From assembly GCA_000004695.1 (NCBI GenBank), contig CM000153.2, forward strand, positions 2,592,001 to 2,656,000: a DNA stretch of 64,000 nt, in the 5' to 3' direction. This DNA is from Dictyostelium discoideum (Eukaryota). The notes under the pieces were generated by a model that was not told the origin of the DNA, did not search any database, and saw only the letters and a program-made list of their open reading frames with translations. Made by a program: the position numbers and the translations under genes. Shown in pieces: positions 6,752 to 64,000 of this stretch (the first letter of the stretch is position 1; every line of letters starts with the position of its first letter).

Positions 6752-7093
6752 TGATTTAAAAAAAAAAAAAAAAAGAAAAAAAAAAAAAAAACAATAATTA
6801 AAAGAATAAGAAAATAAATAAAAAAGCAAAAGAAAAAGAAGAAAAGAAAAAAAAAAAAAAAAAAAAAGAAGACTACAAAAATGAATCAAACAAAAGTTAA
6901 CTTATTTTATTATTTAAAAAAAAAAAAAATTAAAAAAAAAAACCAGTTTAAACAAATAAAAAGTAAAATAGAAATATTAACTATGTAAAGCCAAATCAAA
7001 TAGAAAGTTTAAACTTTATTAAATTATTTTTTTTTTTTTTTTTAGTTTATATTTTATTTTTAAAATTTGTATTTTATTTAATTATTTTTTTTT

Positions 7094-8545
7094 TTAAATA
7101 CTTTTTTCAATTTTAATAGTTTCTTCATTATAAATAACATTATTAAAAGTATCTTTTTGTTTATCAAAACAATTATTTGGACAAGTGTAAATGAAAGCAT
7201 TACTAAATTCTAATTGATTCTTTTTTGGATCTAAAGGATCTCTTAATTTAATTTGAGCTATTAAAGTTGACAAAATTTGAAATTCAAATACTTTAACAGA
7301 ATTACAAATTGAGCAATGTGGTGGTAAATTATTAATTTGGTTGAATGTTAATAATTTTACACCCTCTGCAGTCATTGGTAATGGTTTACCACCATATGAA
7401 TAACGTAAACATTGGTCAGGTGCAAATGAGATCTTTTTAATGAATTTACTAAAAACACGATCTTTTACATATTCATAGGTTTCATCTGACCATTCTGCAC
7501 TTTCATCACCAAATGTATTCTCTATACCTTGATATTTCTTTAAAATACTTTGATTTAAATCTGATTCTTCATTATTATTATTGTTTTTATTTGATGATTT
7601 TTTATCTTTTTTTGTATAAATTGATTCTTCATCAATGAATAAAGTACATGATTGAAATTTATTACTTTTATCATCTGGAATAATTACACCTGATATTATT
7701 TCTTCCTCATTAATACAATCATCTTCTATATTTATTTTATTATTATTTTTTTTTTGTTGTTCTTCTTCTTTAATTCTTTTCTTTTCTTCTTTAATTGCAT
7801 CATCACGAATTTTTAATAATTGATCAATTGAATTTGTAACTGATGCTGTAGTAGTAGTAGTAGTTGTTGTTGTTGATGAAATTCCCCAATCATCAGAATC
7901 TTCAACACCCCAATCATCAAGTGGTTTTTCAATTACATTTTGTTGATGTAACTCTTGTACTTTATCCTCAATTTGTTCATTTTGTAAATCTTCTTCCTCT
8001 TCTTTTAATGGATCTAAACATTTAATTACTCTCCAACTAAATTAACAAAATAATTATGTTAGTTTTTAAAATTTATATAATTGATAATTTCCAAAAAAAA
8101 AAAAAATAATAATAATAATTTGAAAAATTCTTTACCCAGAAGATAATGGATTGCATTCATTACTTGGACAAACAAAAACGTAGAAATTTCTTTCATAATC
8201 TGGAAGTGAATTTAATGGACAATATGCTTGTAATAAAAATGATAAATTTGAACTACACATATTACATTTTAAATCTTTTAAATGATTTGGTGGTTGAGCA
8301 CACCATATCTATTGTTTTTAAAATAAGAAAATAAATAAAATAAAAATAAAAAAATGAAAATAAAAAAGTTAGTATTAATTATTTTAATTTTTTAAAAAAA
8401 AATATTTAAAACTCACAGGTGATCCACCAATTTTTGTTGAATAAGGGTAATCATCCTCTTCTTCCTCTTCTTTATTTATTTTTAAACTATCAATTGGTTC
8501 ATCAATAAATCCTAAGAATGTTTTTGTATCATTTTTAATTGACAT
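7094..8545 (-). CDS. PDCD2-like protein (PDCD2_C domain, no MYND finger). Three exons: complement(join(7094..8036,8136..8308,8417..8545)).
   Basis: Exon 1 MSIKNDTKTFLGFIDEP..STKIGGSP with GTGAGT donor. Exon 2 IWCAQPP..CNMCSS..YCP..CPSNECN with GTAAAG donor. Exon 3 carries the PDCD2_C signature FAPDQCLRYSYGGKPLPMTAEG..LPPHCSICNSVKVFEFQILSTLI. Phases 0/2 are consistent. Confidence 0.75.
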
Positions 8546-8816
8546 ATTATATAAATATATTTTTAAATTGAATTACAATAGAATAATATTTTTGTTAACA
8601 AAAATGAAAAAAAAAAAAAAATGAAAAAAAAAATAAATGTGGGAAAAAAAAATGATCGGAAAAAAAAAAAAATAAAAATAAAAATAAAAAAAATAAAGAA
8701 AAATAAATTTATTTTTGTTTAATTTTAAGTAAATGAAAGACGACAAAATTAAAAATAGATAGATATTTTTAATTTTTTTTAAAAAAATATCTATCACCTT
8801 TTTTTTTTTTTTTTTA

Positions 8817-46186: not shown

Positions 46187-46615
46187 AAATTTTTTTTTTT
46201 GGAAAAAAAAGAAAAAAAAAAGATATTTTCGTGATAATCTGCAAAGAGAATCAGCTGTTGATACGTAACCTATTTTTTTAATTTTTTTATTTTTTATTTA
46301 TTTTTTTTTTTTTTTTTTTTATTTTTTTTTTTTTGCCAAGATTTTTACAAAAAAAAAAATTTAAGAGAAAAAACAAACATAAACTAAAATATTAATAATC
46401 AATTAAATGTGTTGTACTGTGGAAGTACTTTACAGAAAAATATTCGTGTATATATGAAGAATTAAAATAAAAAAATATAAAAAATAAAAAAAATATAAAA
46501 AATAAAAAAAATATTAAAAATAAAAAAATAAAAAAATAAAAATAAAAATAAAGATTTATTAATATAACATATATAAAATATAAATTAATTTTTAAAAAAT
46601 ATAAAATATAAAAAA
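45864..46615. promoter_or_regulatory. Shared divergent intergenic/promoter region between the two giant paralogues (A on -, B on +).
   Basis: Both genes' first ATG codons face outward from this 750-bp AT-rich segment with poly-A/T tracts. Inference from gene arrangement only. Confidence 0.4.
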
Positions 46616-46847
46616 ATGAATAATTTTATAATTATAATATCAATTTTTTTATTATTTTTTTCAAATCAAATTTATTCTAATCAAATTAAATTAAATGATT
46701 ATGATTATGATAATGATTTTAATGATAAAAATAGTGAAAACATTGTTCGGTATGGCTACACTTGCAGTGAGTAATCAAAAAAAAAAAAAAATAAAATAAA
46801 ATAAAAAAATAAAAAATAAAAATAGAAAATATAAAAATAAAATATCT

Positions 46848-46886
<39 letters not shown>

Positions 46887-49800
46887 TATTAGATCAGGAA
46901 ATAGTATCAAAAGATTGGGGATTTCAAAATTTATATGAAACATTTAAAAGTGAATTAAATCAAACTTTTCAATATAATATGACATTTATTCAAAGTGAAG
47001 ATTGGTTATTAGTCTATTCAAAAGATTTATCAATTTCATTTGTTACAAGTTTAAGAGAATCATTTTTCTCAACAGATGTCGTAGGTTATTATGCAATAAG
47101 GATAGAGGATAGTGGTGTATATTCTGAAGGTGATGAGCCCATGTTTACCTTTAATCAGACATTGTATACCTATTACAATACATCCTATTATTTAACATTT
47201 ACTGTATCAACTACCATGGCAAATTTTGCTATGGAAATTAATTTCAATGGATATATTTATAAAGAAATTTCAGCTTCACAAAATACATTTGATAGGACAA
47301 CCTATCAATATTATATTGATGCATCATCGTTTACGCATCCAACTACAAGTTTTGCATTACTAATAACCTATGCATTTCAAGAAGAGATTCCAGTGATATA
47401 TGTGGAGAATATTAATTTCATAAAACAACCAGGTGATCAATTGACTGAAGTGTACGTTTCAAATCAAGGTAGTGATATAATGGGTATTGGTACGGCTGAT
47501 AGACCATTTTCATCGATTCAACAAGCCATTGCATTTGCTAATATATATAATAGTTCAAAAATTATTTTAGAACCTGGATTTTATTGTGGTATGGGTAATA
47601 GTTATATAGATCCCTCTAGTGCTCAAAACCTTCAAATAATTTCTCAAGATAGTAATAATAAAGCAGTGATTTCAGGTGAAGGTCAATTAATTCAAGTTGA
47701 ATTCACATCTGTTAGCGAATATGGTTTCTCTAATAATATAACCTTTGAAAATTTAATTTTTGAAAATTCTAGTACTCGTATTGGTGGCCAATCTATTAAT
47801 ATCGAAGGTAATTGTTCACTTAGATTTATTGGTTGTGAATTTCAAGATCATTATGGTGAATCGGTAATATCAATTAATTATCTTCGATATGCAATCTTTT
47901 ATCAAACCACTTTTTATAGACATAAACAATATGCAATTCAATCGATTGGTGTTTTTGATGAATATAGCTTACTCATTGAAAATTGTATATTCAATTCTAT
48001 AAATAGTTTAAACCTTTTAAATATTGAAGCGGTTTATATAAATAATGCAATATTCAACTATGATCTCAATGAAAATACAAATACTGGACAATGTCCAATC
48101 CTATTGGATATGATAGGACGTTTAGAAATTCAAAATTCAACCATTAGTACAGCGGTTTGTGTTTACAGAACTTTACTTAATGCTGCCTATTTATCATTTT
48201 ATGGTCAACCAAGTGATATATTCACTCAATCAGCTTTCTTGGCATTAAATTCAGATATGACATTAACAGATTCTTATTTTACACACAATGGAAATCTATC
48301 TAGTAGTTTATCAGCTTTTGAAGGTTTTTTAAAACTAAGGGATACTATTTTTAATAATACCCTTTCAAAATCTTCCATTCAAGTTGAAGGTGTTGAGATT
48401 GAATTTAAAAACCTAACATTTAATGAAGAAACAAATGCTTTAATTTGTTCAGGTTCACAAGGTAGTTTACATTATATAGAATTGATAGATACTGGTTCTT
48501 TAATGACCCTTACAAAATCATCAATCTCCATATTGGGTTCAAATTTCTATGGAAATTTCAATCCTAATAATATTGTAAAATCAACACTAAGCACTATCAA
48601 TTGTTTTTTCATGGATGGTACATTTACATATTTTTCAATTATCACTTCAACCTACAAAGATTTTAATAGTACTTTTGAAAGAAATACTTTTGGATTATTT
48701 TCAACTGATGGTCCAACAAATATAACATTAACTTCAAGTTTCTTTTCAAATAATCAATATAAATCATTAATAAAATTAAATGAACTTGCAACTGCAGTAA
48801 TTACCAATTGTACATTTAGTGAAAATTATAGTTCAGATGTTGGTGGAATTATTCAAATGCAAGGATCAAGTAATGCCATTGTTTCATCGAGTTTATTCTA
48901 TAACAATTCTGGTACTTTTGGTGGTGTAGCTTATATTGGTTCTTCTTCTTCGTTAAGTTTTTATAATGTAATAGCGTTTGATAATCAAGCTTATAAAAAT
49001 GGTGGTGTAGTTTGTTTAGATAGTTCATCAGGATCACTTTTAATTAGTGGTGGTAATTTCTCAAAAAATGTTGCTCAATTAGGTTCATTTATCTATTACT
49101 ATGGTAATTCAATGAATATTCATAATGCAACCTATGGAACTGATCAAACGATTGTATTGGGTCAAGTATTTATGGATGTTGATACTGATATAGAGTCAGT
49201 GGTTGAAAGTGGTGGTTTCTATCAAATCAATATCACATTTGTCAATAATAAAAAACATCCAGTTAGTGATTATAGATTCGATAAAACTAAAAAACTTTTT
49301 CTATCACTTGGTAGTGTTGTAATGTTTTCAATTGATTTCCCAAAAGATGCTTATTTAATTATACCACCATTCCAATTGATTGGTATAATTGGTAGTAAAC
49401 AAACTCTTTATATTACTTCAGATGCTTCCACTGTAACAAGTTTTAAAATTCAATTTAGTTTTGAACCTTGTGATATAGGCTATTATCCAAATGAACAAAA
49501 TACACTATGTATACCATGTCCATACAGTACGGTTGGTACCGATGGTTTAGAATGTCAAGCTTGTCCACAAAATGCTGAATGCTTTGGTGCAACAAATATA
49601 GTTGGTTTGGATGGATATTGGATCGATTATAATAACTCTTTGACTCAAGTTTATCAATGTCCATCGGGAGTTTGCTTTTTAAATTCAACCGATTATAATA
49701 CAACTTGTGCAGATTTTAGTACTGGTGTTTTATGTGCAAGTTGTATTGATGGTTATTATAATTGTGGTTCAGGTTGTAAAGAAGAAACTTCAATAAATAA

Positions 49801-51148
49801 ATTAGTATTGGCAACTAAAATCATAATGTTTATAGTACTGGTAGTTACACAACAATTATCTAATGATGACTCGGGTTTAGTTACGATTGCACTTTACTTT
49901 TTACAAACATTGGTAGTAATTTCATCAGGAATTAAATTTAGTATACTAAATTTATTCAGTGGTGCAACATCATCACATGCTGGTAAATCCGATGGTATTT
50001 TATCATTTTTAAATGATTGTATCGGACCATATGGTTTCTATTGGAATCATTATTTTGTAATTCTTCAACCAGCTTTCCTATTATTAATTTTGGCTTTAAT
50101 TATTCTATTGGAATTTTCATTAAGAAAAACTAAAATTATTTTTAAAATACCACTTGTAAAGGATATAATTGAAACTTCAGATAAAGAATTTAGAAATCGT
50201 CAATTCTCTGCATTTGTAAAAGTTTGTATGAATTCCTATGGTCCCTTTGCCACTGAAGTTTTATTAATTCTCTTTTGTAATCAAGTTGGTTCCTATTATC
50301 TTTTAAATGCAAATCCAGAGGTTCAATGTAGTGGTGATCAATTTTATAAAGCAAAAACTGTAACATGTGCTTTAATAGTAACTCTTGCTATTTTTCCAAT
50401 TATTATCTTTGTTTTACTCTATCGTCATAGACATCGTTTAAATGATAAAGATATCGAAAGAAAGTTGGGTGTTTTCTACTTAAAGTATACACCAAAACTT
50501 TATTTTTGGGATGTAACCTTACTTTTGAAAAGACTTTCCATAGTTGCCGTCTCTTTGTTACCATTTGATTCAAAATTCCGTTCAATCTCTTTAGTTACAC
50601 TTGGTTTATTATATTTATTCATTCATTTGAAATTTCAACCATTCAGATCAGATCAAGATAATAATTTGGAAACGGTTTCTTTGGTACTTTTATTCATTTC
50701 TTGTATTTACCTTGATAATGGTTTATACGAAGATACCGAACAATACATTCTAATCATATGTATTATTGTATTCTTAATTGCTGCAATTAAATTCCAATCA
50801 AAATATTTAGTAAATGAATTCAATAAGAGTGTTTATCCAATTTTAAAAACTATTTGGAATAAAGTTTTCTCTTCCAATTCAAACAATGATCCCGATGATG
50901 ATAATAATGAATATAAAGTTGTTTATAATACCTATGGTGATGAAGAAGAAATTAATAAAGATCAACAATTTAGTTATGATTCAATGCGTAATATTATTAA
51001 AGAAGTTGATAAAAAAGGTACATTTTATAATTTTGAAAGAAAAAATGAATCTCAAGTTTCTTCAATTTCTTCAGTTTCTTATTCTTATGATGATGATGAT
51101 GATTTAATTGATGTTTTTGGTAATTCAATTTCAAAAAGAAGAAATTAA
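46616..51148 (+). CDS. Giant (about 1470 aa) surface protein B, paralogue of A: signal peptide, beta-helix repeats, Cys-rich EGF/TNFR-like module, about 9 TM helices. Two exons: join(46616..46766,46893..51148).
   Basis: Exon 1 MNNFIIIISIFLLFFSNQIYS.. (signal peptide) ends TGC A|GTGAGT. Acceptor ttattattag at 46891-92 restores the frame of ORF 46979..51148 (N QEIVSKDWGF..). Cys-rich module CIPCPYSTVGTDGLECQACP..GYWI..GVLCASCIDGY. The C-terminal region has 8-9 hydrophobic helices. Confidence 0.75.
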
Positions 51149-51290
51149 AATTTTTTTATAATAAAAATAATTAATAAATTTAAATAAATTATTTAAATAT
51201 TTAAAAAAAAAAAAAAAAAAAAAAAAATAGAATAAATTATTTAAATTTTTTTATTTATTTTATTTATTTATTTTAATTTTTTAATTTATA

Positions 51291-51576
51291 TTAACAATCA
51301 TAACAACATTCTTCATTTGCATGAGGTACTTCAGTTGGATCAAGACCCATTTGTTTCATTTTAATGGCAATTTCAAATAAATAATCAAAACATTCGCACA
51401 TTGTTTTTGCTTTAACCCAATCTGGTCCCCAAACATAAACACCATGTCTTCTAACTAAAACTGCATTTGCATTTGGATATTTTTCCATTGCTTTGTGCTT
51501 AAAAAAAAAAAAAAAAAAATTAAAAAAAATTAAAAAAAAATTAAACAATCATAGTTATAAAATTAGAAATCTCCAA

Positions 51577-51616
<40 letters not shown>

Positions 51617-52175
51617 CCAATCATACAATAAAAAAAATAAAAAAATAAAAAATTTTTAAAAAAAATAATAAAGAATTAATAATTACCATTCTTTCTTTTA
51701 AATCTCTTTCATGTGGAGTATTTTCAATGATTGGAATAACTAATCTATCAAAATATTGTAAATATTTAGCATTTTCACCATGACCAGAGAGAATACCTTT
51801 AATCATTTCTTGATGAGTAATAATGAATTCAGTTTGATAGAGTAATGTCACCATAACTGCATGTTGACTATGAGTATGAATTACAGCACCAGCATCTCTA
51901 TATTTATAAGCATTGAAAAACAATGGTGTACATTGACTTGCTTTTAATTTCTTTTCAGTTGGAGGTGTTGAGATCTCATTTTCATTTTCATCCATAACGA
52001 AAATATCTTCTCCAAGGATTCTCTCTTTTTGTACACCTGATGCTGCAATATAAATCTCTTTATCACGTTTAATTGAAATACCACCACCTGTACCTGTAAC
52101 CCATCCATTACCATAAAATAATTTACATAATTCTGGTATTAAAACTCTTGGATGTTCTGAATCAAAATTTGACAT
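51291..52175 (-). CDS. mtnB: Methylthioribulose-1-phosphate dehydratase (class II aldolase/adducin fold, methionine salvage; APIP/MtnB). Two exons: complement(join(51291..51497,51687..52175)).
   Basis: ..[70 protein letters not shown]|[47 protein letters not shown].. is collinear with MtnB/APIP. Donor ATG|GTAATT, acceptor ttttaag at 51499-98. Confidence 0.85.
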
Positions 52176-52493
52176 TTTATTTATTTATCCGACTTTTTTT
52201 TTTTTGTAAAATTAAAAAATAAAAAAATAAAAAAAAATAAAAAAGTGAAAGTAAAAAAAAAAAAAAAGCGAAAAATAAAAAAAAAACAAAAATTAAAAAT
52301 AAACCACATATCACACAACAGAAAATAAAAAAAATTAATTTTTTAAATAAAATAATAATTTGGGTAAGGAATTTAATAAGGAGAGCTTAATAGAAAATAA
52401 AAAAGTGAAAAAAAGAGGAGTCGCATAAAATTACTTTAATGCTGAAATTTTTTTTTTTTTAAATTTACATAATTTATTTTATTATTTTTTTTT

Positions 52494-54023
52494 TTAAGAA
52501 GATGAATCAATTGGAACACCTGGATTAATTGGAGTAATTTCACCATTAGAAACTGGTGTATAAGTATGAGTATCTACTTTTTTCTTTAATTTTCTTTTTT
52601 CAAAACAAATTCTAAAACAACAGACTATACCAGAGCATAATAAAACAAAAGCAACACCAACGAAAACAAAGTTTAAGGCGGATACAGTATTTATATATTG
52701 TTCATAGTAGTTACAATTTTTAGAAAAGGTTGGCATATATGAAAATGTTTCATCACCTCTAAAAGTGGATTTATGAGTTTTTGAACAAACAAGATAACTA
52801 TATTGAGAGGTATAAGTTTGTTGGAAGGTGAGTAAATAGCCATAAAAATTTGAACCATCGGAATTGATTATAAAACTAATATTTGAAGAGATGAGATTTA
52901 ATCTAAGACTAATGTCAGAGTTTACAGCATAGATAATACCTTGATCAGTTTGTTGTTGTTGTTGGCCGTCCAAGGAGATGGTAGAATTTGAGATTGTAGC
53001 AAAAGATTTCTCAATATCTAAAACTGGGAAGTCTTGATTCCAAGAGTTTGCTTGATAGTTGAAGACAGCCTCATTGTTTCTAAAATCAAGGAAACTACCA
53101 AAACTAATTAAGAATTGAGCACTATCAAGTGTTCCAGCGAAACTACTATCTCTAATGGTGATTTGTGAGTTTTCAAAAATAAAGAATGGTTTGGAGACAA
53201 CTAAAATGTCACTCATTTGAATGTTTGAAAATGAAATTTGAGATCCACCAATTGGGAAGAGTGTTTCACTTGCAATGACCTTTGTGAAATTACAACTATC
53301 GACAGTCAATGAAATTGGGTATTTTAGTGAGTAAACCAATGAATTTGCGAATGTTGATGTATAATAGTCATTACCAAATTGGGAATTAAAGAAACTAATT
53401 GAAATTGATGGTGTTGATGTTGCCGCGTCAATTGCCAAACTATCGGACCAACCATTATTTGCATCATCCATATCCACATATTGGCCATCGACATAAATAA
53501 GGTCAGCTACTAGTCCATATGGAATTGAAACTTGGTTAAATTCAATATTAACTTGACCGGCTTCATAATATCCGAATGGATCAATATGGATCAAACCATC
53601 AGTACGAATTCCTGTATAGGTTGGATTTACAATTTGAATACCATTGAAATAAAGATTGGTATTTGCTGGTGATGATGTCTGATAAATGTTAAACATTGGT
53701 GTTGAAAGATTGCTTACAAAGCTAACCATCTCATAACTATATTGTAACGCTGCATTAAATGTTACATTTAAAGCTGTTACATTCTGTGATGTTAAAGTGG
53801 AATAGCTTCCAACTAAGAAATTTAATACCAATGGATAAGATTCTCCATAACTATATTTATAAGAATTTAATGCACCATCAATTGTTTTACATGGTTGATA
53901 AACACCACATTGATAATTATCAATACCTGTTGATGTTGATACTGTAAGTTGGGTAGTTTGTGAATTTACAATTGAATTTAAAAATATTAAATTTATTATT
54001 AAAATTATTAAATATTTAATTTT

Positions 54024-54026
<3 letters not shown>
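52494..54026 (-). CDS. Type-I membrane glycoprotein of unknown function, 510 aa, single exon, paralogue of 56206..57720.
   Basis: Signal peptide MKIKYLIILIINLIFLNSIVNSQ, Ser/Thr/Asn-rich ectodomain with many N-x-S/T sites, single TM FVFVGVAFVLLCSGIVCCF, short basic cytoplasmic tail. Confidence 0.6.
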
Positions 54027-54059
<33 letters not shown>

Positions 54060-54441
54060 CTATAATTATTTTTATTTTATTTTTTTTATTTTTATTATTA
54101 TTATTATTTTTTTTTTTTTGTTTAGAAAAAAAAAAATAAAAAAATACAAATATATATTATATATAAATAAAATAAATTAAAAAGTAAATAAACAAAAAAA
54201 AAAAAAAGTTGAAAAAAAAACAAAAGCAAAAAAAAAAAAAAAAAAAAAAAGTTGATTGTCTCTCAAATTTTCGCAAAGTTTTTTTTTTTATTTTTTCGTA
54301 ATATTTTGGAAAAAAATATCTCTCTTGAAAATCTGGTTGGTGGGTTGAAAAAATGTTTTACTCAAAAAAAAAGAAATTATTTCAGATTTTTTACAAGAAA
54401 TTATTATTATTATTATTATAATAACTATTATTTATTAATAA

Positions 54442-55519
54442 CTAATTTAAATAATCCTTTATTAAATCCATTGATTGTTGATAAAGTTGTTTTCCAATTT
54501 CTTTATTATAAGAAAGTGAGCTTGAATTTATGATTTTAGTATCATCAAAGTATTTTCCAGATATTGATTGATATTGATTTTCTATAGCACATTTAACGAT
54601 TGCTCTTGCACAATATTCAGCAGATTTAAAAATTTTATGATATAAACGATCCAATGGAAAAGGTAAATTAACGATTTCACTTGCGAAAATACCTGGATGA
54701 ATTGCATTTATTGTTGCTTTATTTGTAATATTTTCATTTTCAACACTATTAATTAAACTATCCAAATAATAGGTTGAATAAATTTGAGCCAATTTACTTT
54801 GACAATAAGTTTGAAAAGTATATGATGTATCATTAATTAAATTTTCTAATGAAAATCCACCCAATGAATGAACTGATGATGAAATATTTAAGATACGTGC
54901 TTGATTTTCCATTAAATTTTTAAATAATAATTGAGTCAATAAGAAATGACCTAAATAATTAGCCAAAAATTGAGTATTGAATTGATTTCCACCATTTTTT
55001 GTGATTGGATTATTCCATTTTTTATCTTCCCATAACCACATAATACCTGCATTATTAATGAGTATATCACATTTTAATTTTTTAATATTTTGAAATTGAT
55101 TAACAAACTCTTTAATACTACCAAGTGAAAGTAAATCTAATTTCATAAATTCTAATTTATCATTTTCACAATTTGAAAATTCAAATACTTCTTTAATTGC
55201 TTCCTTTGCTTTCAATTCATTTCTACAAGCAAAAATAATATGTGCTCCTAATTTTCCAATCTTTTTTGCAATTTCTTTACCTAATCCTGCATTTGAACCT
55301 GTAATAATTACAACTTTACCTTTTAAATCATATTTATCATATTCCTTTTTTTTTTTTTAAAAAAAAAAAAAACAATAATTAATTAATTTTCCAATTTATT
55401 TCAATTATTGATAAATAAAATAAAATAATTACAATATCTTTAGTTGGAGCAAATAAACCCATACCAAAATAAAAAATTATAGTAATTAAAATTACTAATA
55501 AAATAATAATATAATACAT
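54442..55519 (-). CDS. Short-chain dehydrogenase/reductase (retinol-dehydrogenase-like) with an N-terminal TM anchor. Two exons: complement(join(54442..55344,55433..55519)).
   Basis: Exon 1 MYYIIILLVILITIIFYFGMGLFAPTKDI with donor ATT|GTAATT. Exon 2 EYDKYDLKGKVVIITGSNAGLGKEIAKKIGKLGAHIIFACRN..ILINNAGIM..YCQSKLAQ.. carries the TGxxxGxG, NNAG and YxxxK SDR motifs. Confidence 0.8.
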
Positions 55520-55550
55520 GTATTAAATTAAAAGAAAACACTTGTTTGAT

Positions 55551-55592
<42 letters not shown>

Positions 55593-55597
55593 AAAAA

Positions 55598-55642
<45 letters not shown>

Positions 55643-56205
55643 AAAAAATTAAAAAAAACTTTCTAAACAGTATTGATTTAATAAATAAAAAAAAAAGATA
55701 TTTAACAAAACAAAATAAAGAAATAAATTATTCATATATCTCAAATAAAACAAATACTAAAGTTGATAGATATTATTATTATCTTGAAAAAAAGAATATT
55801 CTTTTACTAAATTTCCAAAAACACTCAAAAATATGGGATCAACAATTACCTCACTTTTGGATATTTTCAAAAAAAAAAAAAAAATTTTTTTACGAAAAAC
55901 AAAAATAAAAAAAAAAAAACATTATGCGAAAATTTGAGACAATAACTTTTTTTTTTATTATTTTTTTTTTTTTTTTCATAATCAATTTTTTATTTACTAT
56001 TTTCCTTTTTTTTTTTTTTTTTTTATTTTCTTTTTTTTATACATGTAAATAAAATAAATAATAAATAATAAATAATAATAATAGTAATAATAATAATAAT
56101 AGTAATAATAATAATAATAATAAATATCAAATATATAACTATATATAATTTTTTTAAATAAAAAAAAAAATAAAATAAAATAAAATAAAAATAAAATAAA
56201 TAAAA

Positions 56206-57720
56206 ATGAAAATTAAAATATTATTGATTTTAATATTAAATTTAATATTTTTAAATTCGGTTGTAAATTCGCAATATGCTAGAAATTATTATGTTGCAAC
56301 CAATGGTACAGATTTTAATTCTTGTGGACAAGCAATATCACAAGCATGTGCAACACCAGTTGGTGCAGTGAATTCATTTAGAATTCAATTTGGTTATTAT
56401 TCAAGTAATGTTTATCAATTGTTAGTAAACTTTGGAAGTGGATATCAATGGAATGGTGGAAATTCATTAACATCAGTCTCTCTCAACAATTTAAATGTTA
56501 GCTTTATCGGTGCACCAGATGGATCTACATACTTTTATAATAGTTATTCCGCTTTACCATTATTTAATATAACAAGTGCAGCAACTCAAACAACCTATAT
56601 CACCTTCACCAATATTACTTATGGTACACCAAATTTTGGTTGTTATCATAATTATCAATATAATACACTCGCCGCATCATTATTATTAATTACACCAGCT
56701 TATTATTATTCAGTAAATAACTATATCCTATTCAATAATTTTACCATTAGTTGTAAAACCATTGACATCCCAATTGTGGCTACCAATGGTTATGGTTATA
56801 CTTATTTAGGACCAGCCTCAGAAGATTATAATGATTATTTCACTGGTTCCCTTTCATCCTATAACCCAAACACTTTCATAACATTCAATGGCATGTATTT
56901 CAACCAAACAGCAGCCTATTCGAAAGCTGGATATACTTTTTCATTCAGTTCACAACTTGTAAACGTTCCATTATTCCCAACAAGTGTTTCATTTGTAAAT
57001 TGTGTTTTGATTTTGGATGATGTTAATTTCTTATCAACTCAATCATTTATCAATGTTGGTCGTGGTAATTTAATCATTGATAATTCCACTTTCATCGTTT
57101 CATCATTTTCTAGCAATCCCCCACCATTCTTGAATGTTACATCTGCTCAAGTCGATATCACCAATTCAAATATAATAACCGAAGGTTATATGATTAGCTT
57201 CTTATCATGTCAAGGTTGTTTCTTTAAAGCTGACAATATCAACTATACTTCATTAAGTATAACAAGCTCCTCCGTACCATTTAGTTTCATGTATGCTTCT
57301 GCCTCTTTCTATAATTCTCGTTTAATTTCCTCTCAATACGGCGGTGTCATTAGTGCCGTTGATTCTCAACTCGCCTTAAGATCCAATATAATTTCTTCTG
57401 GAAAAACAAATTCTGTCAATCTTGATAAATCCAACGCATTCATTTATGGAAATACTTTCCCCTATTATTACAAGGTAAATTCATTATATTACAATTCATA
57501 TTCAACTGTAGTCTATTGTTCCTCTGATTCTGAATCTGATATCGTCGGTGATTTTTTAGTTGGTTCTTACACTGAAAATTGTTCAAAATATACTAAAGAC
57601 TTTAAATTAAAATGGTATTTTGGTTTCCTTGCTGTTGGTATTGTTGGTACACTTTTTATTTACATTTTCCTTGCTTCAACAATTGCTATAATTAAAAGAT
57701 GTGGAGGTGGTGATAATTAA
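56206..57720 (+). CDS. Type-I membrane glycoprotein, 504 aa, single exon, paralogue of 52494..54026 in inverted orientation.
   Basis: Near-identical signal peptide MKIKILLILILNLIFLNSVVNSQ, Ser/Thr/Asn-rich ectodomain, TM WYFGFLAVGIVGTLFIYIFLASTIAII, short tail KRCGGGDN. Confidence 0.6.
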   Translation: MKIKILLILILNLIFLNSVVNSQYARNYYVATNGTDFNSCGQAISQACATPVGAVNSFRIQFGYYSSNVYQLLVNFGSGYQWNGGNSLTSVSLNNLNVSFIGAPDGSTYFYNSYSALPLFNITSAATQTTYITFTNITYGTPNFGCYHNYQYNTLAASLLLITPAYYYSVNNYILFNNFTISCKTIDIPIVATNGYGYTYLGPASEDYNDYFTGSLSSYNPNTFITFNGMYFNQTAAYSKAGYTFSFSSQLVNVPLFPTSVSFVNCVLILDDVNFLSTQSFINVGRGNLIIDNSTFIVSSFSSNPPPFLNVTSAQVDITNSNIITEGYMISFLSCQGCFFKADNINYTSLSITSSSVPFSFMYASASFYNSRLISSQYGGVISAVDSQLALRSNIISSGKTNSVNLDKSNAFIYGNTFPYYYKVNSLYYNSYSTVVYCSSDSESDIVGDFLVGSYTENCSKYTKDFKLKWYFGFLAVGIVGTLFIYIFLASTIAIIKRCGGGDN

Positions 57721-57919
57721 TTATTAATTAAAAATAATTAAGAAAAAAAAAAAAAAAAAAAAAAATATAAATATTTATATTTTTAAATATAATTATTAAA
57801 AAAAAATTTAAAATAAAAAACTAAAATTTTGTAAAAATAAAAAAAAGATAAAATAAAAAAATTAAAAAATATTAATTCATCACTTTCTTTTATTTTTTTT
57901 TTATTATTTTTTTTTTTTT

Positions 57920-59674
57920 TTAAACTCTTTTAATTAATTTCAATGAATATTCAGTTGGTCTTACACTAACACTTAAAATTAGATTTTCTGGTAATGGTAA
58001 ACAATCAATGGAGAACATTCGATAATTTAATATTAAATTTGAAAGAAATATATGAATTTGATTCATTGCAATTGTTTGGCCAATACAATTTCTTGGTCCA
58101 ATTCCAAAGTTTAAAGTATCTGAAACTTTTGAATTTAAAAATCTATCTGGTTTAAATTCATTTGGATCTTTATAATTATTTTCATCTAAAGAAAACCCTT
58201 TAACATCCATCAAAATATTAGTATTTGCAGGAATATAATATTTATTATCACCAATTATCATTTCATTTATTGATTTTCTGAAAAAAAAATTATTATTAGA
58301 TTTTTAATATTAAATTATAATTTAATTATAATTATAATTACCTTGGTAGTGATAATGGTGCAATTGGCTTTTTTTTTTTTTTTTTTTTTTGTATAAATAA
58401 AAGTTTAATATTAGAAAAATAAATATTCCTTTTTTTTTTTTTTTTTTTAAAATTTTTATAAAAATACATACATATAATCTATTAGTTTCTTTTATAAATG
58501 AATTAAGAAATGGAGTATTGATTTTATCATTTGCAGTTATTTCTGATTTATTTAATTTTTTTAATTCTTGGAAAATAAGTTCTTGAAATTCTGGATTATT
58601 TACTAATTTTAAAATAATCCATTCTATAGTAGAACCGGTTGTATCTGTACCTGCCATTAAAAAATCAATACATATACTTTTAATATTTTCAATTTGTTTT
58701 TCATTTAAACCATTTTCATCTTCATTGATTGTCATAATTAAAGAATCTAATAAATCATTTGCTTTAAAATCATCACTTGTGAAATCAATTTCTTTAATTC
58801 TACTATTAAATTTTTCAGTGGCAATTTTTGAAAGAAAAGAATTTTTATCTAAAATTTTTGTAAATTTTAATAAAATTGGTTGAAAAATTCCAAGAAAGTC
58901 ATAAATTACATTATATACATTTAATGAATTTAATAAATTTAATATTGTTTTAAATATTAATTTGAATTCTGTTGAATCTGAATATAATTGAAATGATTTA
59001 TTTTCATTAAAAATCATTTTAAACATTACTGTTAATGTTAAACTTTGAAAATAAAATCTTGTATTATTAATAATAATTGATTTATTTCCATCATCATCAT
59101 CATCTTCTTCTTCTTCATTTTTTATACCATTTTTTTCAAAGAAATTAAAAAGTTCCTTTGATTTTAATAGAATGAAGTCATTCATATCCTTATTTAATAC
59201 TTTTTTATATGATTTCATAATTAATTCTTTATTGCTATCCCAAATATCACCATTACAACCTATAATTCCACGACTATCATCTCCTGTCATTGTTTTAAAT
59301 GTTGCGATTCTATTTTTAAAATTTTCAAAATTTTCAATATACATCTCTCTAATTAATTTATAATCACTAACTACAACATAGTACGTCCCTCCGAGCCACA
59401 TTCTAAATATTCCATGATATTTTTTACTAATAATAGGTATAGTTAAATGTGCATCCTTTCCAACCTGGTGAATGTTTCCTAAAATTGGTACTGGTGTAGG
59501 TCCTGATAAACTTAATGAATTTTGATTATCTGCTTTATAATACTATTTTTTTTATTAATACTAATTTTCTTTTCTTTTTTTTTTTTTTTTATATATAATT
59601 TTATTTTATTTTATAATTACTTTAACCGAGTAATAAAATAATATTAAAAAAAAAATGAAAAGAAGTAAATCCAT
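57920..59674 (-). CDS. Cytochrome P450 monooxygenase. Four exons including a 26-nt exon: complement(join(57920..58277,58342..58367,58472..59542,59621..59674)).
   Basis: MDLLLFIFFLILFYYSVK|YYKADNQNSLSLSGPTPVPILGNIHQ.. has an N-terminal anchor and a Pro-rich hinge. ..FLMAGTDTTGSTIEW..ETNRLY|PIAPLSLPR|KSINEMIIGDNKYYIPANT..FKPDRF..FGIGPRNCIGQTIA shows the I-helix, ExxR, PERF-like and Cys heme-ligand motifs. Donors GTAATT, GTATGT, GTAATT. Confidence 0.85.
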
Positions 59675-59888
59675 TTTTTTAAAATTTTATTGTTTTTGTT
59701 ATAAAAATTTGGATAATGAATTTTTTTTTTTTTTTATACGAATAATAACAATAGAAATAAAAAAAAATTATTTTATATTGTTTTTTTTTATATTAAAATA
59801 ATAATAAAAATTATTTGATATTGTTTTATTTTTTTATTATAATGATAATTAATAAAAAATTAAAGTATAATAAAATAAATAATAACAA

Positions 59889-59951
<63 letters not shown>

Positions 59952-60370
59952 TTATTTGATATGTTTTTTTTTTTTATTGTAATTAATAATAAAAAAAAAA
60001 AAATAAAAAAAATGTTTCAAAAAATATCTATTAAGTTCATTAAAATAAGTTTTGGGCTTAATTAAGAAAAAAAAAATATTAATAAATTTAAATCAATTAA
60101 AATGTATAAGAAATAAAATTTAATTTTTTTAAATATATTATTATTTTTAATTATAATTGAATTATATTTATTTATTTTGAATTTTCCTGAGAAATTTTGA
60201 CTTTTTGACTTTTTTTTTTTTTTTTACGCTTTTTAATCTTTTTTTTTTTTTTTTTTTATTTCTTCAATTTATTTATTAAACCTGGATTTCGAACTTTCAT
60301 CTTTTGAGGTGGGATGAGGGACATAATTAATAATAATAATAATTTAAAAAATTTAATTTATTTAAAATTA

Positions 60371-60406
<36 letters not shown>

Positions 60407-60916
60407 AAAAAAAGAATAAAGTTATTTGAGATATTATAAAATAATAGTAAAAAAAAGAAAATATTAAAATTTTTTTGAAATATTCAATGGTATCTTTTTT
60501 AAATCACGTGCTTTATTGTTATAAAATAAAATTAGGAAAATAATAACGTGATTTTGATACAAAATAATTTAATTTTATTGATCGTTTATTATTATTTTTT
60601 TATATTTTAATATTTTATATCATTTAATTTTTTTTATTTTTCTTCAATTTGAAACAAATATTAACAAAAAGAAAAAATCTCAACATTATTAAATTGTTTG
60701 GGTCCACGATATAATATAATATGAAAAAAAAAAAAATATGAATTTGCTTTTTGAATTAAAAAATTATAAAAAAATTAAAATAACACTAATTTTTTATGTT
60801 GCTTTGTATTGAATAAAAAAAAAAAAAAAAAACATAATAACTTTTAAAATAAATTTTATATTTATATTAATATTTCGACTCAATGATGAGTATTTTATTT
60901 TTAAATAGTTTTACAA

Positions 60917-61325
60917 TTATTCTTCTTCTTCTGGAGCATCACCACGCTATTAGAATTAAAAAAAAGAAAAAGTAAAAGAAAAATGAAAAACAGGTTAGTA
61001 ATGGAACATATTTAAAGATAAATTCAAAAATACAGAGAAAACACATACGTATGGTGGTGGTGGTGGTGGTGGTGGGAGACCATTCCATGTTACATTGTTA
61101 TTTCCAAAGGAAATACCAGTGGATGATTTGGAGGAAACCTTGGTGGCACTTGATTTACCGGCACCAAATGAGAGTTTGGTTAAAGCGTCTAAAAAAAAAT
61201 TAATTTTTATAATTAAAATGTTAGCAATTATTTATTTATTTATTTATTTATTTTGTTGGAAGTTATTTTAATTTAATTTTAATTTTCGTCGTTTAAAAAA
61301 TATATAAATATTTACCAATTAACAT
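60917..61325 (-). CDS. Small Ser/Gly/Pro-rich protein (about 59 aa) with a poly-Pro and RGD C-terminus, copy 1. Three exons: complement(join(60917..60946,61049..61188,61316..61325)).
   Basis: Spliced product MLI|DALTKLSFGAGKSSATKVSSKSSTGISFGNNNVTWNGLPPPPPPPPY|RGDAPEEEE. Donors G|GTAAAT and TAC|GTATGT. Acceptors ttttttttag and aattctaatag. Phases 1/0 are consistent. The composition recalls the small HssA/2C/7E-type Dictyostelium proteins, but this is unconfirmed. Confidence 0.5.
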
Positions 61326-61538
61326 TTTTATTTATTTATATATTTTGTGGTTTTTGATAATATTTTTAAAATTATATTAAAAGATAGAAAGTATTTTTAC
61401 AAATAGAAATAATAGTAGTATTGGTACAAATTGTTGTTTGAAATGATTAAAAAAATAAAAAAAAATTTCATTTTTATACTTTTTTTTTAAGTGTTTGTTT
61501 TTTTTTTTCAATCATTTTCCTCGAAGAAGATATTAATT

Positions 61539-61570
<32 letters not shown>

Positions 61571-61856
61571 TTTTTTTTTGTCAAAACCAATATTTGCACG
61601 TTCAAATTGATTTTAAATTTATTTTTTTTTAATATTTAGCTTGTCCAAAGATATTATTTTTTGTTCGCGACATTTAATCTTTGCAAAAAAAAAAAATTAT
61701 TCAAATTTTCAAATAAAAAAATTAATAAAAAAAAGGTTGTATTTTGATTGAAAAATGAAAATGGTGGAAATAAAAAATGTTTAGAATGGTTTAAATTTTT
61801 TTATTATTTTTAATTTTTTTTTTTTTTTTAATATTAATTTTTGATTTAAATTAAAA

Positions 61857-61944
61857 TTTTTTGTCCAATTAAAAAGTTGAGAAATTTGATATTTTATCAA
61901 TCATCATATCAAATTTCCCAACTTTTTAATTGGACAAAAAATTG

Positions 61945-61946
<2 letters not shown>
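61857..61946. repeat. About 90-bp near-perfect palindrome (hairpin-forming inverted repeat) within duplicated unit 1.
   Basis: ttgtccaattaaaaagttgagaaatttgatat..atatcaaatttcccaactttttaattggacaa. The two arms are reverse complements apart from 1-2 mismatches. One arm recurs at about 63826-63880 in unit 2. Confidence 0.7.
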
Positions 61947-61979
<33 letters not shown>

Positions 61980-62789
61980 ATTTAAGTTTTTAGATATTTT
62001 TTAAAAGTAATCATGAAGATTTTTAAAAAAAGAGAACTTTTAAAAAATTGAAATTTGTTGTTTTTTAAAATCTTTATTATGTAAATTTATTTTTTAATAA
62101 AATTTTTGGGTTATGAAATTAAATAAATAAATACAAGAAATAATAAAAAATAAAAAATTAAAAAAAAAATTTACTTTTGATTTATAATTCTTTGATACCT
62201 GAATTCATAAAATGTTTGAAAATTTCTTTTAGAAAATTTATATATACCTCCTTGGAAACTTGGTATGAAAATCTGCACTACTCTACTATTTAATTATTAT
62301 TATTTGATTGTTTAAAAACATACTATTGTAACGTTGTTAATTATTTAAGATTTTGGAAGTTTTTTTAAAGTGAAATAATCATATTCATGAGAATAATTAA
62401 TAAATTGCAAAATCTCTTCATTTATTTTATTTCACACTATTCTTTTTCTCTTATGTATTACATTTCTATAACTTATAAGAATTGGTTCATGCTAAGAATC
62501 AATCAAAATTTTATGATTAACTTTATTCTTATGATAATGAATTAAATTCATAATTTGAGTAAGAGCAAGGATAACATTTTTTTTTATATTCAACAATTTT
62601 AAACAAATATTAAAAATTCCAAATACTACACGATGATGTGAAATCGTTTCACTCAAAAAAAAGAAAATAAAAAAAAAAAGTAAAAATAGAAAAAAATAAT
62701 GAAAATCAAAAATAGAAATAATTTTAAAATATATATTAAGTAATACATCGACTCCTTGATGAGTAGTTTATTTTTAAATAATTTAGCAA

Positions 62790-63186
62790 TTATTCTTCTT
62801 CTTCTGGAGCATCACCACGCTATTAGAATTAAAATAAAAGATAGAAAAAAAAAAGAAAGAGAGAAATGGGTTAGTAATGGAATATATTTTAAAGATAAAT
62901 TCTAAAATAGAGAGAAAACACATACGTATGGTGGTGGTGGTGGTGGTGGTGGGAGACCATTCCATGTTACATTGTTATTTCCAAAGGAAATACCAGTGGA
63001 TGATTTGGAGGAAACCTTGGTAGCACTTGATTTACCGGAACCGAATGAGAGTTTGGTTAAAGCATCTAAAAATTTAATTTTAATTATTAAAATGTTAGAA
63101 ATTATTATATTATTTATTTATTTTGTTGGTGGTTTAATTTTAATTTTCCTTGTTTAAAAAATATATAAATATTTACCAATTAACAT
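62790..63186 (-). CDS. Small Ser/Gly/Pro-rich poly-Pro/RGD protein, copy 2. Three exons: complement(join(62790..62819,62926..63065,63177..63186)).
   Basis: Identical exon structure to copy 1. The product differs by one residue (FGSGK vs FGAGK) plus silent changes. Confidence 0.5.
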
Positions 63187-64000
63187 TTTTATTTATTTAT
63201 ATATATTGGGGTTGTTGATAATATTTAAAAATTATATTAAAAAAAAAAATAGAAAGTATTTTTACAAGTAGAAGTAATAGTAGTATTGGTACAGATTGTT
63301 GTTTTGAAATGATTAAAAAAAAAAAAAAATTTTCATTTTTATACTTTTTTTTTTTATATCATCAAAACAAAAATTCTCAATAATATTAATTTTCTTTTTC
63401 TTTTCCCACACAAAAAATTTTTCGTCGCAAAGATATTTTTTTTTTCAAATTTTTAGACTCAACACCCTATTGGCCAAAAAATACATTCAAAGAAAGACTG
63501 CAAATGATTGATTTTATTGGACAACACAAAAATTGTTTTTTTGATCGTATCTCAGTGCTCTAACCAGATATTTCCATAAAAAAAAAAAAAAAGCAAACCA
63601 ATCCCCATCTTGTTTTTTTTTTTTTTTTTTTTAATTTTTTAATTATTTTTTTTAATTTTTTTTTTTTTTTTTTTTTTAATTTTGTTGCAAAGATTGGGTT
63701 GATAAAAAGATTTCAAAGAACAAAAATATTAAATGATTTAATTATTTTTATTTTTATTTTTCATTTTTATTTTTATTTTTATTTTTTTTTTATTTTTTTT
63801 TTTTTTGATATTAATTATTAATTTATGTCCAATAAAAAAGTTGGGAAAATATTAATTTGATATTTTATCAATCATCATATATGTTGCGAACTTTTTTTTT
63901 TTTTTTTTTTTTTTTTTATTGGATCAAGTATTTTGATATTTTTTAAAATAATCATAAATAAAACATTTTTAAATGTTCCCAATTTTCTTTTTTTTTTTTT

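Follow-up and report, generated by a model that had tools for sequence, protein, structure and literature searches.

Two near-identical micro-genes of Dictyostelium discoideum as half of an old four-copy cluster probably homogenised by gene conversion

When two neighbouring genes are nearly identical, introns included, must they be young? The question is raised by the right end of a stretch of 64,000 nucleotides (nt) from Dictyostelium discoideum (GCA_000004695.1, contig CM000153.2, positions 2,592,001 to 2,656,000; hereafter the window; 21% G+C), in which two units follow each other in the same orientation, each with a three-exon micro-gene for a protein of 59 amino acids (aa), D1 in unit 1 and D2 in unit 2, and the first also with a long palindrome. 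These units had been described, from the sequence of the window, as the product of a very recent tandem duplication of about 1.87 kb, with ongoing gene conversion named as the alternative. We now favour the alternative, and consider, with a probability of about 0.75, that the high identity of the two units was produced in an old cluster by repeated gene conversion over short tracts, and not by a recent duplication of 1.87 kb. Near-identical neighbouring micro-genes need not be young, and the age of these would be misjudged without the loci of sister species and the sequence past the edge of the window. Overall, this is ordinary genome biology of modest importance, with a small uncharacterised protein at its centre.

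As to the layout of the repeat, the two near-identical direct repeats about 1.87 kb apart do exist, and alignment places them at 60857-61486 and 62730-63351, with a start-to-start spacing of 1861-1877 nt; the register first given for them was right except toward the 3' end, where it is about 13 nt off (60917 pairs with 62790). Over this core of about 630 bp the identity is 88.6% (blastn, 643 columns), or about 93.5% with gaps excluded. The coding sequences (CDS) agree at 176 of 180 positions (97.8%), the differences being three synonymous changes and one Ala/Ser change, and the proximal 160 nt upstream are 94% identical, while the introns, which had been called conserved almost base for base, are 91-93% identical without gaps but 81-86% identical when indels are counted, so that the description was overstated. 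A second, weaker common patch of about 230 bp lies around the palindrome (61795-62027 in unit 1, 63756-63973 in unit 2), with an identity of 70.5% in the alignment of 61795-62017 with 63756-63958. High identity does not run contiguously over the whole 1.87-kb unit. Similarity drops sharply at about 61487, only the core and the distal patch align, the repeated portion amounts to only about 860 of the 1870 nt per unit, and the middles of the units, of 300-400 nt (61487-61794 and 63352-63755), show no significant similarity when aligned with each other.

The window ends near the centre of a head-to-head intergenic region, and the rest of the locus was found in a second D. discoideum assembly (NCBI assembly GCA_054883475.1; locus L004), reached via a neighbouring single-exon gene of 504 aa (window 56206-57720). 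This locus is 99.6% identical to the window over 46206-64000 (17.8 kb, with one mismatch and 15 indels) and runs about 3.7 kb further, into two more copies on the opposite strand, both with three exons: D3 (ATG at L004 18531), whose protein is identical to that of D1, and D4 (ATG at L004 20841), whose protein is DDB_G0284931. The order is P450' <-D1 <-D2 | D3-> D4-> next gene, over about 7 kb, and four family locus tags are annotated here (DDB_G0285043, DDB_G0284925, DDB_G0284927, and DDB_G0284931). By this extended sequence, units 1 and 2 are the cytochrome-P450-proximal half of a four-copy cluster.

Clusters of the same kind are found in the sister species. The window from 46.9 to 59.5 kb is syntenic with a locus of D. 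citrinum (L001) that carries the P450, a short-chain dehydrogenase, an aldolase, and other genes, and this locus has two head-to-head copies, the called CA and the uncalled, inverted CB; the syntenic locus of D. firmibasis (L003) has three, in the order <-F1 | F2-> F3->. The upstream region of D2 aligns continuously with that of CA, from -661 to -61 (blastn of 63851-63247 against L001 9361-9929, expect value (E) 5e-65; alignment z 31), and D3 aligns continuously with CB, from -576 to +243. The inner pair D2|D3 is, on these alignments, orthologous to the pair CA|CB. The distal upstream region of D1 (-527 to -309) aligns with those of CB, D3, and D4, but not with that of D2 (unit 1 against L001 8725-8914, blastn E 2e-24; z 19 versus about 6). 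Because each of the two upstream types is orthologous to a different copy in D. citrinum, both predate the split between D. discoideum and D. citrinum, and the cluster as a whole is older than the divergence of D. discoideum from D. citrinum and D. firmibasis. For D1 and D4, D. citrinum has no counterpart; either D. discoideum gained them as extra copies or D. citrinum lost them.

A simple and very recent tandem duplication of the 1.87-kb unit, with the differences as early decay, would account for the regular spacing, for the near-identity of the CDS, and for the recurrence of the second patch around the palindrome at the same period. However, the units have only two patches in common, their unrelated middles each have an ortholog of their own in D. 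citrinum, and multi-copy clusters are present in all three species. The products of such a duplication would also be expected to be each other's closest relatives, yet in several segments D1 is nearest D4 or D3, and D2 is nearest D3. Because of the unrelated middles with their own orthologs, the cross-pair similarity, and the multi-copy state of all the species, we judge a recent duplication, now very improbable, to be already refuted.

What speaks for gene conversion is that the coding sequence groups by species and the distal upstream regions group across species. Exon 2 is 97% identical between D1 and D2, 89% between CA and CB, and 96% between F1 and F2, versus 84-86% between D. discoideum and D. 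citrinum, and the synonymous divergence (dS) is 0.07 within D. discoideum and 0.47-0.68 to D. citrinum; paralogs are thus closer to each other than orthologs are, within orthologous flanks. Among D1-D4 the nearest paralog varies by segment. In intron 2 the identity is 99% for D2-D3, 95% for D1-D4, and 91% for D1-D2, and in the proximal promoter it is 98% for D1-D4, 94% for D1-D2, and 84% for D2-D3, with exon 2 at 99% for D1-D3 and intron 1 at 97% for D3-D4. This patchwork, with borders that can be sharp, as at about 61487, is what leads us to infer repeated short-tract conversion among direct and inverted copies. Short tracts would have been exchanged time and again between such copies, homogenising their coding regions and introns, with unequal or inverted recombination possibly contributing.

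Birth and death of copies without any gene conversion, the mosaic then arising from differing duplication breakpoints, has to be weighed as well. It agrees with the differences between species in copy number (2, 3, and 4) and in orientation, and with the lack of D. citrinum counterparts for D1 and D4. However, the coding sequences and introns of D2|D3 and of CA|CB are far closer within species than across them, and the near-identity of D2 and D3 in intron 2, despite upstream regions that are non-homologous to each other and conserved across species, requires exchange between old copies, making this alternative an unlikely one, though less so than a recent duplication. A comparable situation is known in Caenorhabditis elegans, whose inverted repeats, bearing divergent pairs of homologous genes, are reported to be actively maintained, as a case of concerted evolution (PMC1803023). 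As in that case, paralogs within a species are here closer than orthologs, the flanks are orthologous, and exchange involves inverted copies. The Dictyostelium cluster differs in that its tracts are short (about 100-600 nt) and patchy, in that its arms, taken as a whole, are far from identical, and in that its copy number and orientation change between species.

Several points weigh against gene conversion in an old cluster, or against what we build on it. Conversion is read from the mosaic, and recurrent lineage-specific duplication and loss could give part of the same pattern. Each sister species is represented by one assembly, in which an inverted, repeated locus could have been put together wrongly; the intergenic alignments, at about 70% identity in sequence of 85% A+T, are noisy; and three species are insufficient to reconstruct the order of the inversions and duplications. 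The predicted expression and splicing of the genes come from annotation plus comparative evidence, and the roles considered below for the polyproline motif and for the palindrome are candidate ones.

Are these tiny reading frames genes at all? The genes of the window are already annotated in D. discoideum AX4. The protein of D1 is an exact match to an AX4 protein annotated as both DDB_G0285043 and DDB_G0284927, and that of D2 to DDB_G0284925, on a contig of 5.45 Mb; all matched entries are labelled 'hypothetical protein' and have the same three-exon models, and further members of the family are the 57-aa DDB_G0284931 and a chromosome 2 paralog, DDB_G0271770. The original prediction of three exons, with a first exon of 10 nt (ATGTTAATTG in D1) and a last one of 30 nt, equals this public annotation, and splicing and translation return exactly the peptides that it had listed, including the A/S difference: D1 encodes 59 aa, MLIDALTKLSFGAGKSS...YRGDAPEEEE, and D2 encodes the GSGKSS variant. 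All four introns of D1 and D2 have GT...AG ends. We reconstructed ten copies from the three species (D1-D4, CA, CB, F1-F3, and a non-syntenic copy of D. firmibasis, at locus L002), and every one of them has an intact open reading frame (ORF) and the same architecture, with indels in multiples of three, and a ratio of nonsynonymous to synonymous divergence (dN/dS) of 0.1-0.3 in every informative pairwise comparison. Copies of D. discoideum have both introns, CA is without intron 1, CB, F1, F2, and the L002 copy are without intron 2, and F3 has none. Because these intron-less relatives read in frame across the junctions, both splice junctions are confirmed by comparison, including the one after the 10-nt exon. 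The ORFs are very short and of low-complexity Ser/Pro composition, as might be expected if they were not real genes and the conserved core were a non-coding element, but the low dN/dS, the ten intact frames in three species, and the precise, frame-preserving intron losses leave this hardly credible, and the three-exon micro-genes are, on comparative grounds, genuinely protein-coding. The features of the two units are collected in Table 1.

Table 1. Features of the two units in the window (positions of the 64,000-nt stretch; strand as read, a dot for none)
Feature	Position	Strand	Details
Unit 1 core repeat: 3' flank, gene, and 160-nt proximal promoter	60857-61486	-	pairs with 62730-63351
Unit 1 gene D1	60917-61325	-	exon 1 61316-61325, exon 2 61049-61188, exon 3 60917-60946
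D1 introns	61189-61315; 60947-61048	-	intron 1 (GTAAAT...TAG); intron 2 (GTATGT...TAG)
Unit 1 distal upstream region, 'B-type'	61487-61847	-	no relation to unit 2; homologs upstream of D. citrinum CB and of D3/D4
Palindrome, 103 bp	61848-61950	.	arms 61848-61892 and 61906-61950, loop 61893-61905; each arm with TGTCCAAT
T-run plus about 50 nt	61951-62027	.	with the palindrome, second patch common to unit 2 (63881-63973)
Inter-unit spacer	62028-62729	.	normal complexity, about 700 nt
Unit 2 core repeat	62730-63351	-	pairs with 60857-61486
Unit 2 gene D2	62790-63186	-	exon 1 63177-63186, exon 2 62926-63065, exon 3 62790-62819
D2 introns	63066-63176; 62820-62925	-	intron 1; intron 2
Unit 2 distal upstream region, 'A-type'	63352-63821	-	collinear with the upstream region of D. 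citrinum CA; rich in CCAAT, TGTCCAA, and ATCTTTGCA
Unit 2 palindrome patch	63822-63973	.	proximal arm and loop 63822-63880, decayed distal arm (ATAT...CGAAC and T-run), common flank

Micro-genes with a first exon of 10 nt evade annotation, and gaps of this kind are exposed in all three species. One intact copy of D. citrinum is uncalled (L001 7818-8133, minus strand), as are two of D. firmibasis (L003 about 6823-7087, minus strand, and about 8347-8602, plus strand) and all four copies in the second D. discoideum assembly (L004 14.7-21.3 kb). CA and F3 both have Phe at position 3 and a place next to the right flank, and look orthologous.

As to the protein, two profile searches, an exhaustive one with HMMER over 1.84 billion representatives and a word-indexed one, found no member of the family outside D. 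discoideum, D. citrinum, and D. firmibasis, although absence from other proteomes is weak evidence, micro-genes being often left uncalled. The small protein had been held not to be assignable to a family, and indeed Pfam gives no match at threshold; searches of the literature by locus tag, by UniProt or RefSeq accession, and by the sequence of the palindrome arm turned up neither a name for these genes nor a mention of them or of the arm. Positions that are invariant in the family include the N-terminal DALTK.S and the stretch I..FG.N...W.GLPPPP..PP.R, which is followed by a variable, mostly acidic tail; among the invariant columns are W38, G40, L41, and P42-45, forming a motif W-x-G-L-P4 inside a run of eight prolines that all members have except the chromosome 2 paralog (PPPPAIPP). 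AlphaFold2, given the family alignment, yields no fold; apart from a short helix at residues 2-10 and the proline run, which is extended, nothing is modelled, and the predicted local distance difference test score (pLDDT) is 65. The 59-aa product is predicted to be intrinsically disordered, with an N-terminal helix, a linker rich in Ser and Lys, the polyproline run, and the mostly acidic tail.

Two kinships or roles had been suggested by the look of the protein. One is with the small HssA/2C/7E proteins, which it resembles in being tiny, restricted to Dictyostelium, and multi-copy, with a Ser-rich first half and a short SSKSS..SFG string, but from which it differs in having no Gly/Cys-rich C-terminal half, this place being taken by the run of eight prolines and the acidic tail. 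The kinship is not supported. Comparison with genuine HssA/B-like proteins by hhalign gave a probability of 1.1% over 5 aligned columns, and no HssA protein appeared in the exhaustive profile search. With PF05710 ('Coiled'), two of six members gave hits, both sub-threshold (best E 0.012; one score of 13.3 bits versus a cutoff of 21.4). The other suggestion was the RGD tail, taken for a distinctive feature of the protein. It is due to one extra Gly codon that is limited to D1, D2, and D3, three of the four copies of the cluster, and is absent from D4, the chromosome 2 paralog, and all copies of D. citrinum and D. firmibasis, which have R-D or R-P in its place. Because RGD is not conserved, and because no signal peptide is visible in the sequence of the micro-protein, a role as an adhesion motif is unlikely.

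A class I ligand of an EVH1 domain, of the sort present in ActA and zyxin, consists of [F/W/Y/L]PPPP with acidic residues after it, and the FH1 domains of formins contain polyproline tracts that bind profilin. At the level of the motif only, the family conforms to such ligands (a conserved [F/W/Y/L]PPPP, or at least six prolines, with an acidic flank), and the micro-protein may tentatively be proposed, as the leading guess at its function, to be a putative ligand of a proline-recognition module, for example the EVH1 domain of VASP, or profilin, an assignment that we think more apt to be wrong than right. It shares with known EVH1 and profilin ligands the invariant G-L-PPPP within the eight prolines and, in most members, the residues rich in D and E that come after. 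It is unlike them in that the motif stands in a free protein of 59 aa and not in a large scaffold, and the weak acidic tail of D. firmibasis (WRPPPIE), with one acidic residue only, also speaks against the proposal. Were it correct, the several gene copies might supply a dosage of the polyproline ligand. A selectively constrained, lineage-restricted family of 59-aa proteins with a conserved polyproline motif is, in any case, a candidate for a small functional study.

The palindrome had been described as 90 bp at 61857-61946; it is real but longer, 103 bp at 61848-61950, with 45-nt arms of 93% complementarity and a 13-nt loop, and as DNA it folds with -34.7 kcal/mol (z = -10.6). It is the sole palindrome of complex sequence and such quality in the window, other inverted repeats of the same size being artefacts of A-runs and T-runs. 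The arm, GTCCAATTAAAAAGTTGRGAAA, occurs three times in the window, in the two arms of unit 1 and in one arm of unit 2, where its recurrence had been correctly noted and where it comes as the proximal arm with the loop. It is present at the same places in L004 and once in L001, and absent from the D. firmibasis loci and from D3, D4, and CB. Both D2 and CA have the loop and the proximal arm at a collinear position, about -640 from the ATG, with the loop of CA inverted relative to that of D2 (12 of 13 matches, in the flipped orientation only). Neither unit 2 nor CA has kept the hairpin (z = -2.95 and -1.2, respectively), and Rfam gives nothing at the gathering threshold. Because of these two results, a function that depends on structure, whether as RNA or as a cruciform, is unsupported. 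The flipped loop and the decayed distal arm would fit an ancestral full palindrome that flipped its loop and lost an arm by slippage.

The palindrome thus appears as an element that lies upstream, at about -520 to -690, and is specific to D1 and to the D2/CA units, and, its arm sequence being kept and its hairpin not, it is most likely either a candidate cis-regulatory dyad or a decaying or neutral fold-back relic. It might instead be an independent insertion resembling a miniature inverted-repeat transposable element, or a gene for a hairpin RNA such as the precursor of a microRNA (miRNA) or a small interfering RNA, and to this the very stable hairpin of the 45-nt arms and one weak, chance-level match of the palindrome to an miRNA precursor model (22 bits, E 0.34) lend some appearance. 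It is rendered quite improbable by the confinement of the arm to this locus in the DNA compared, namely the 64-kb window and the related loci L001-L004 (about 80 kb), and by the collinear upstream position in D2 and CA, as well as by the loss of the hairpin in unit 2 and D. citrinum and the lack of an Rfam match at threshold. By a minority reading, the palindrome would mark the symmetry centre of a head-to-head pair, but at the present centre of D2|D3 nothing more than a decayed copy is left, and the arm is missing from D3, D4, CB, and D. firmibasis.

An upstream element that is a dyad or a relic may be compared with a bolder combination of the same observations, in which free-standing polyproline 'decoy' micro-proteins would titrate the EVH1 domain of VASP or profilin, a recombination-prone cluster would adjust the number of their copies, and the palindrome would be what is preserved of the centre of a fold-back inverted duplication, still promoting inversion and conversion. 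A palindrome still promoting inversion would fit the flip of the loop between species and the changes in the orientation of copies. If true, such decoys would be a previously unrecognised class of micro-proteins tuning actin dynamics; we hold the combination to be speculative and unlikely, well below the simpler proposal of a polyproline ligand.

The regions upstream of the family genes are enriched in short motifs, namely TGTCCAAT, CCAAT, and ATCTTTG(CA), which are candidate cis-regulatory sites. CCAAT occurs 4 and 7 times in the upstream regions 61326-61960 and 63187-63900, versus 0.6-0.8 expected; 5 of the 15 occurrences of TGTCCAA in the window, and 4 of the 18 of ATCTTTG/CAAAGAT, lie upstream of family genes. 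Upstream regions of the family in the sister species (L001 8731-9747 and L003 7505-9743) also have enriched short motifs, and at L003 9743-9755 there is a perfect dyad, TCTTTGCAAAGA.

In the remainder of the locus, the spacer between the units (62028-62729) contains no ORF with a Pfam family match and has no counterpart in the visible part of unit 2, in D. citrinum, in D. firmibasis, or in the D3-D4 spacer. A T-rich segment at 60186-60300 that matches several intergenic places in the other loci was set aside as low-complexity sequence only. A search of the 64-kb window for tRNA genes found none, and because of this no context of a tRNA-targeted retroelement is indicated. Outside the window, the 2.3-kb spacer between D3 and D4 contains an ORF of 94 aa (L004 19367-19651, plus strand) with no Pfam match, which may be XP_639938, an accession with the AX4 entries for D3 and D4 on either side of it. 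The cytochrome P450 gene (window 57923-59542, minus strand) adjoins the cluster in D. discoideum and D. citrinum; at the syntenic locus of D. firmibasis (L003 10175-10680) no P450 is called, and the cluster is directly followed by a gene of 494 aa. Finally, the dehydrogenase gene lies between two paralogous, oppositely oriented genes of about 505 aa, at 52494-54026 (minus strand) and 56206-57720 (plus strand). In the related loci, the counterparts of this pair have no Pfam family listed; those of D. citrinum are about 70% identical. Both proteins of the window start with MKIK(Y/I)L(I/L)IL(I/L)NLIFLNS(I/V)VNSQ, which looks like a signal peptide.

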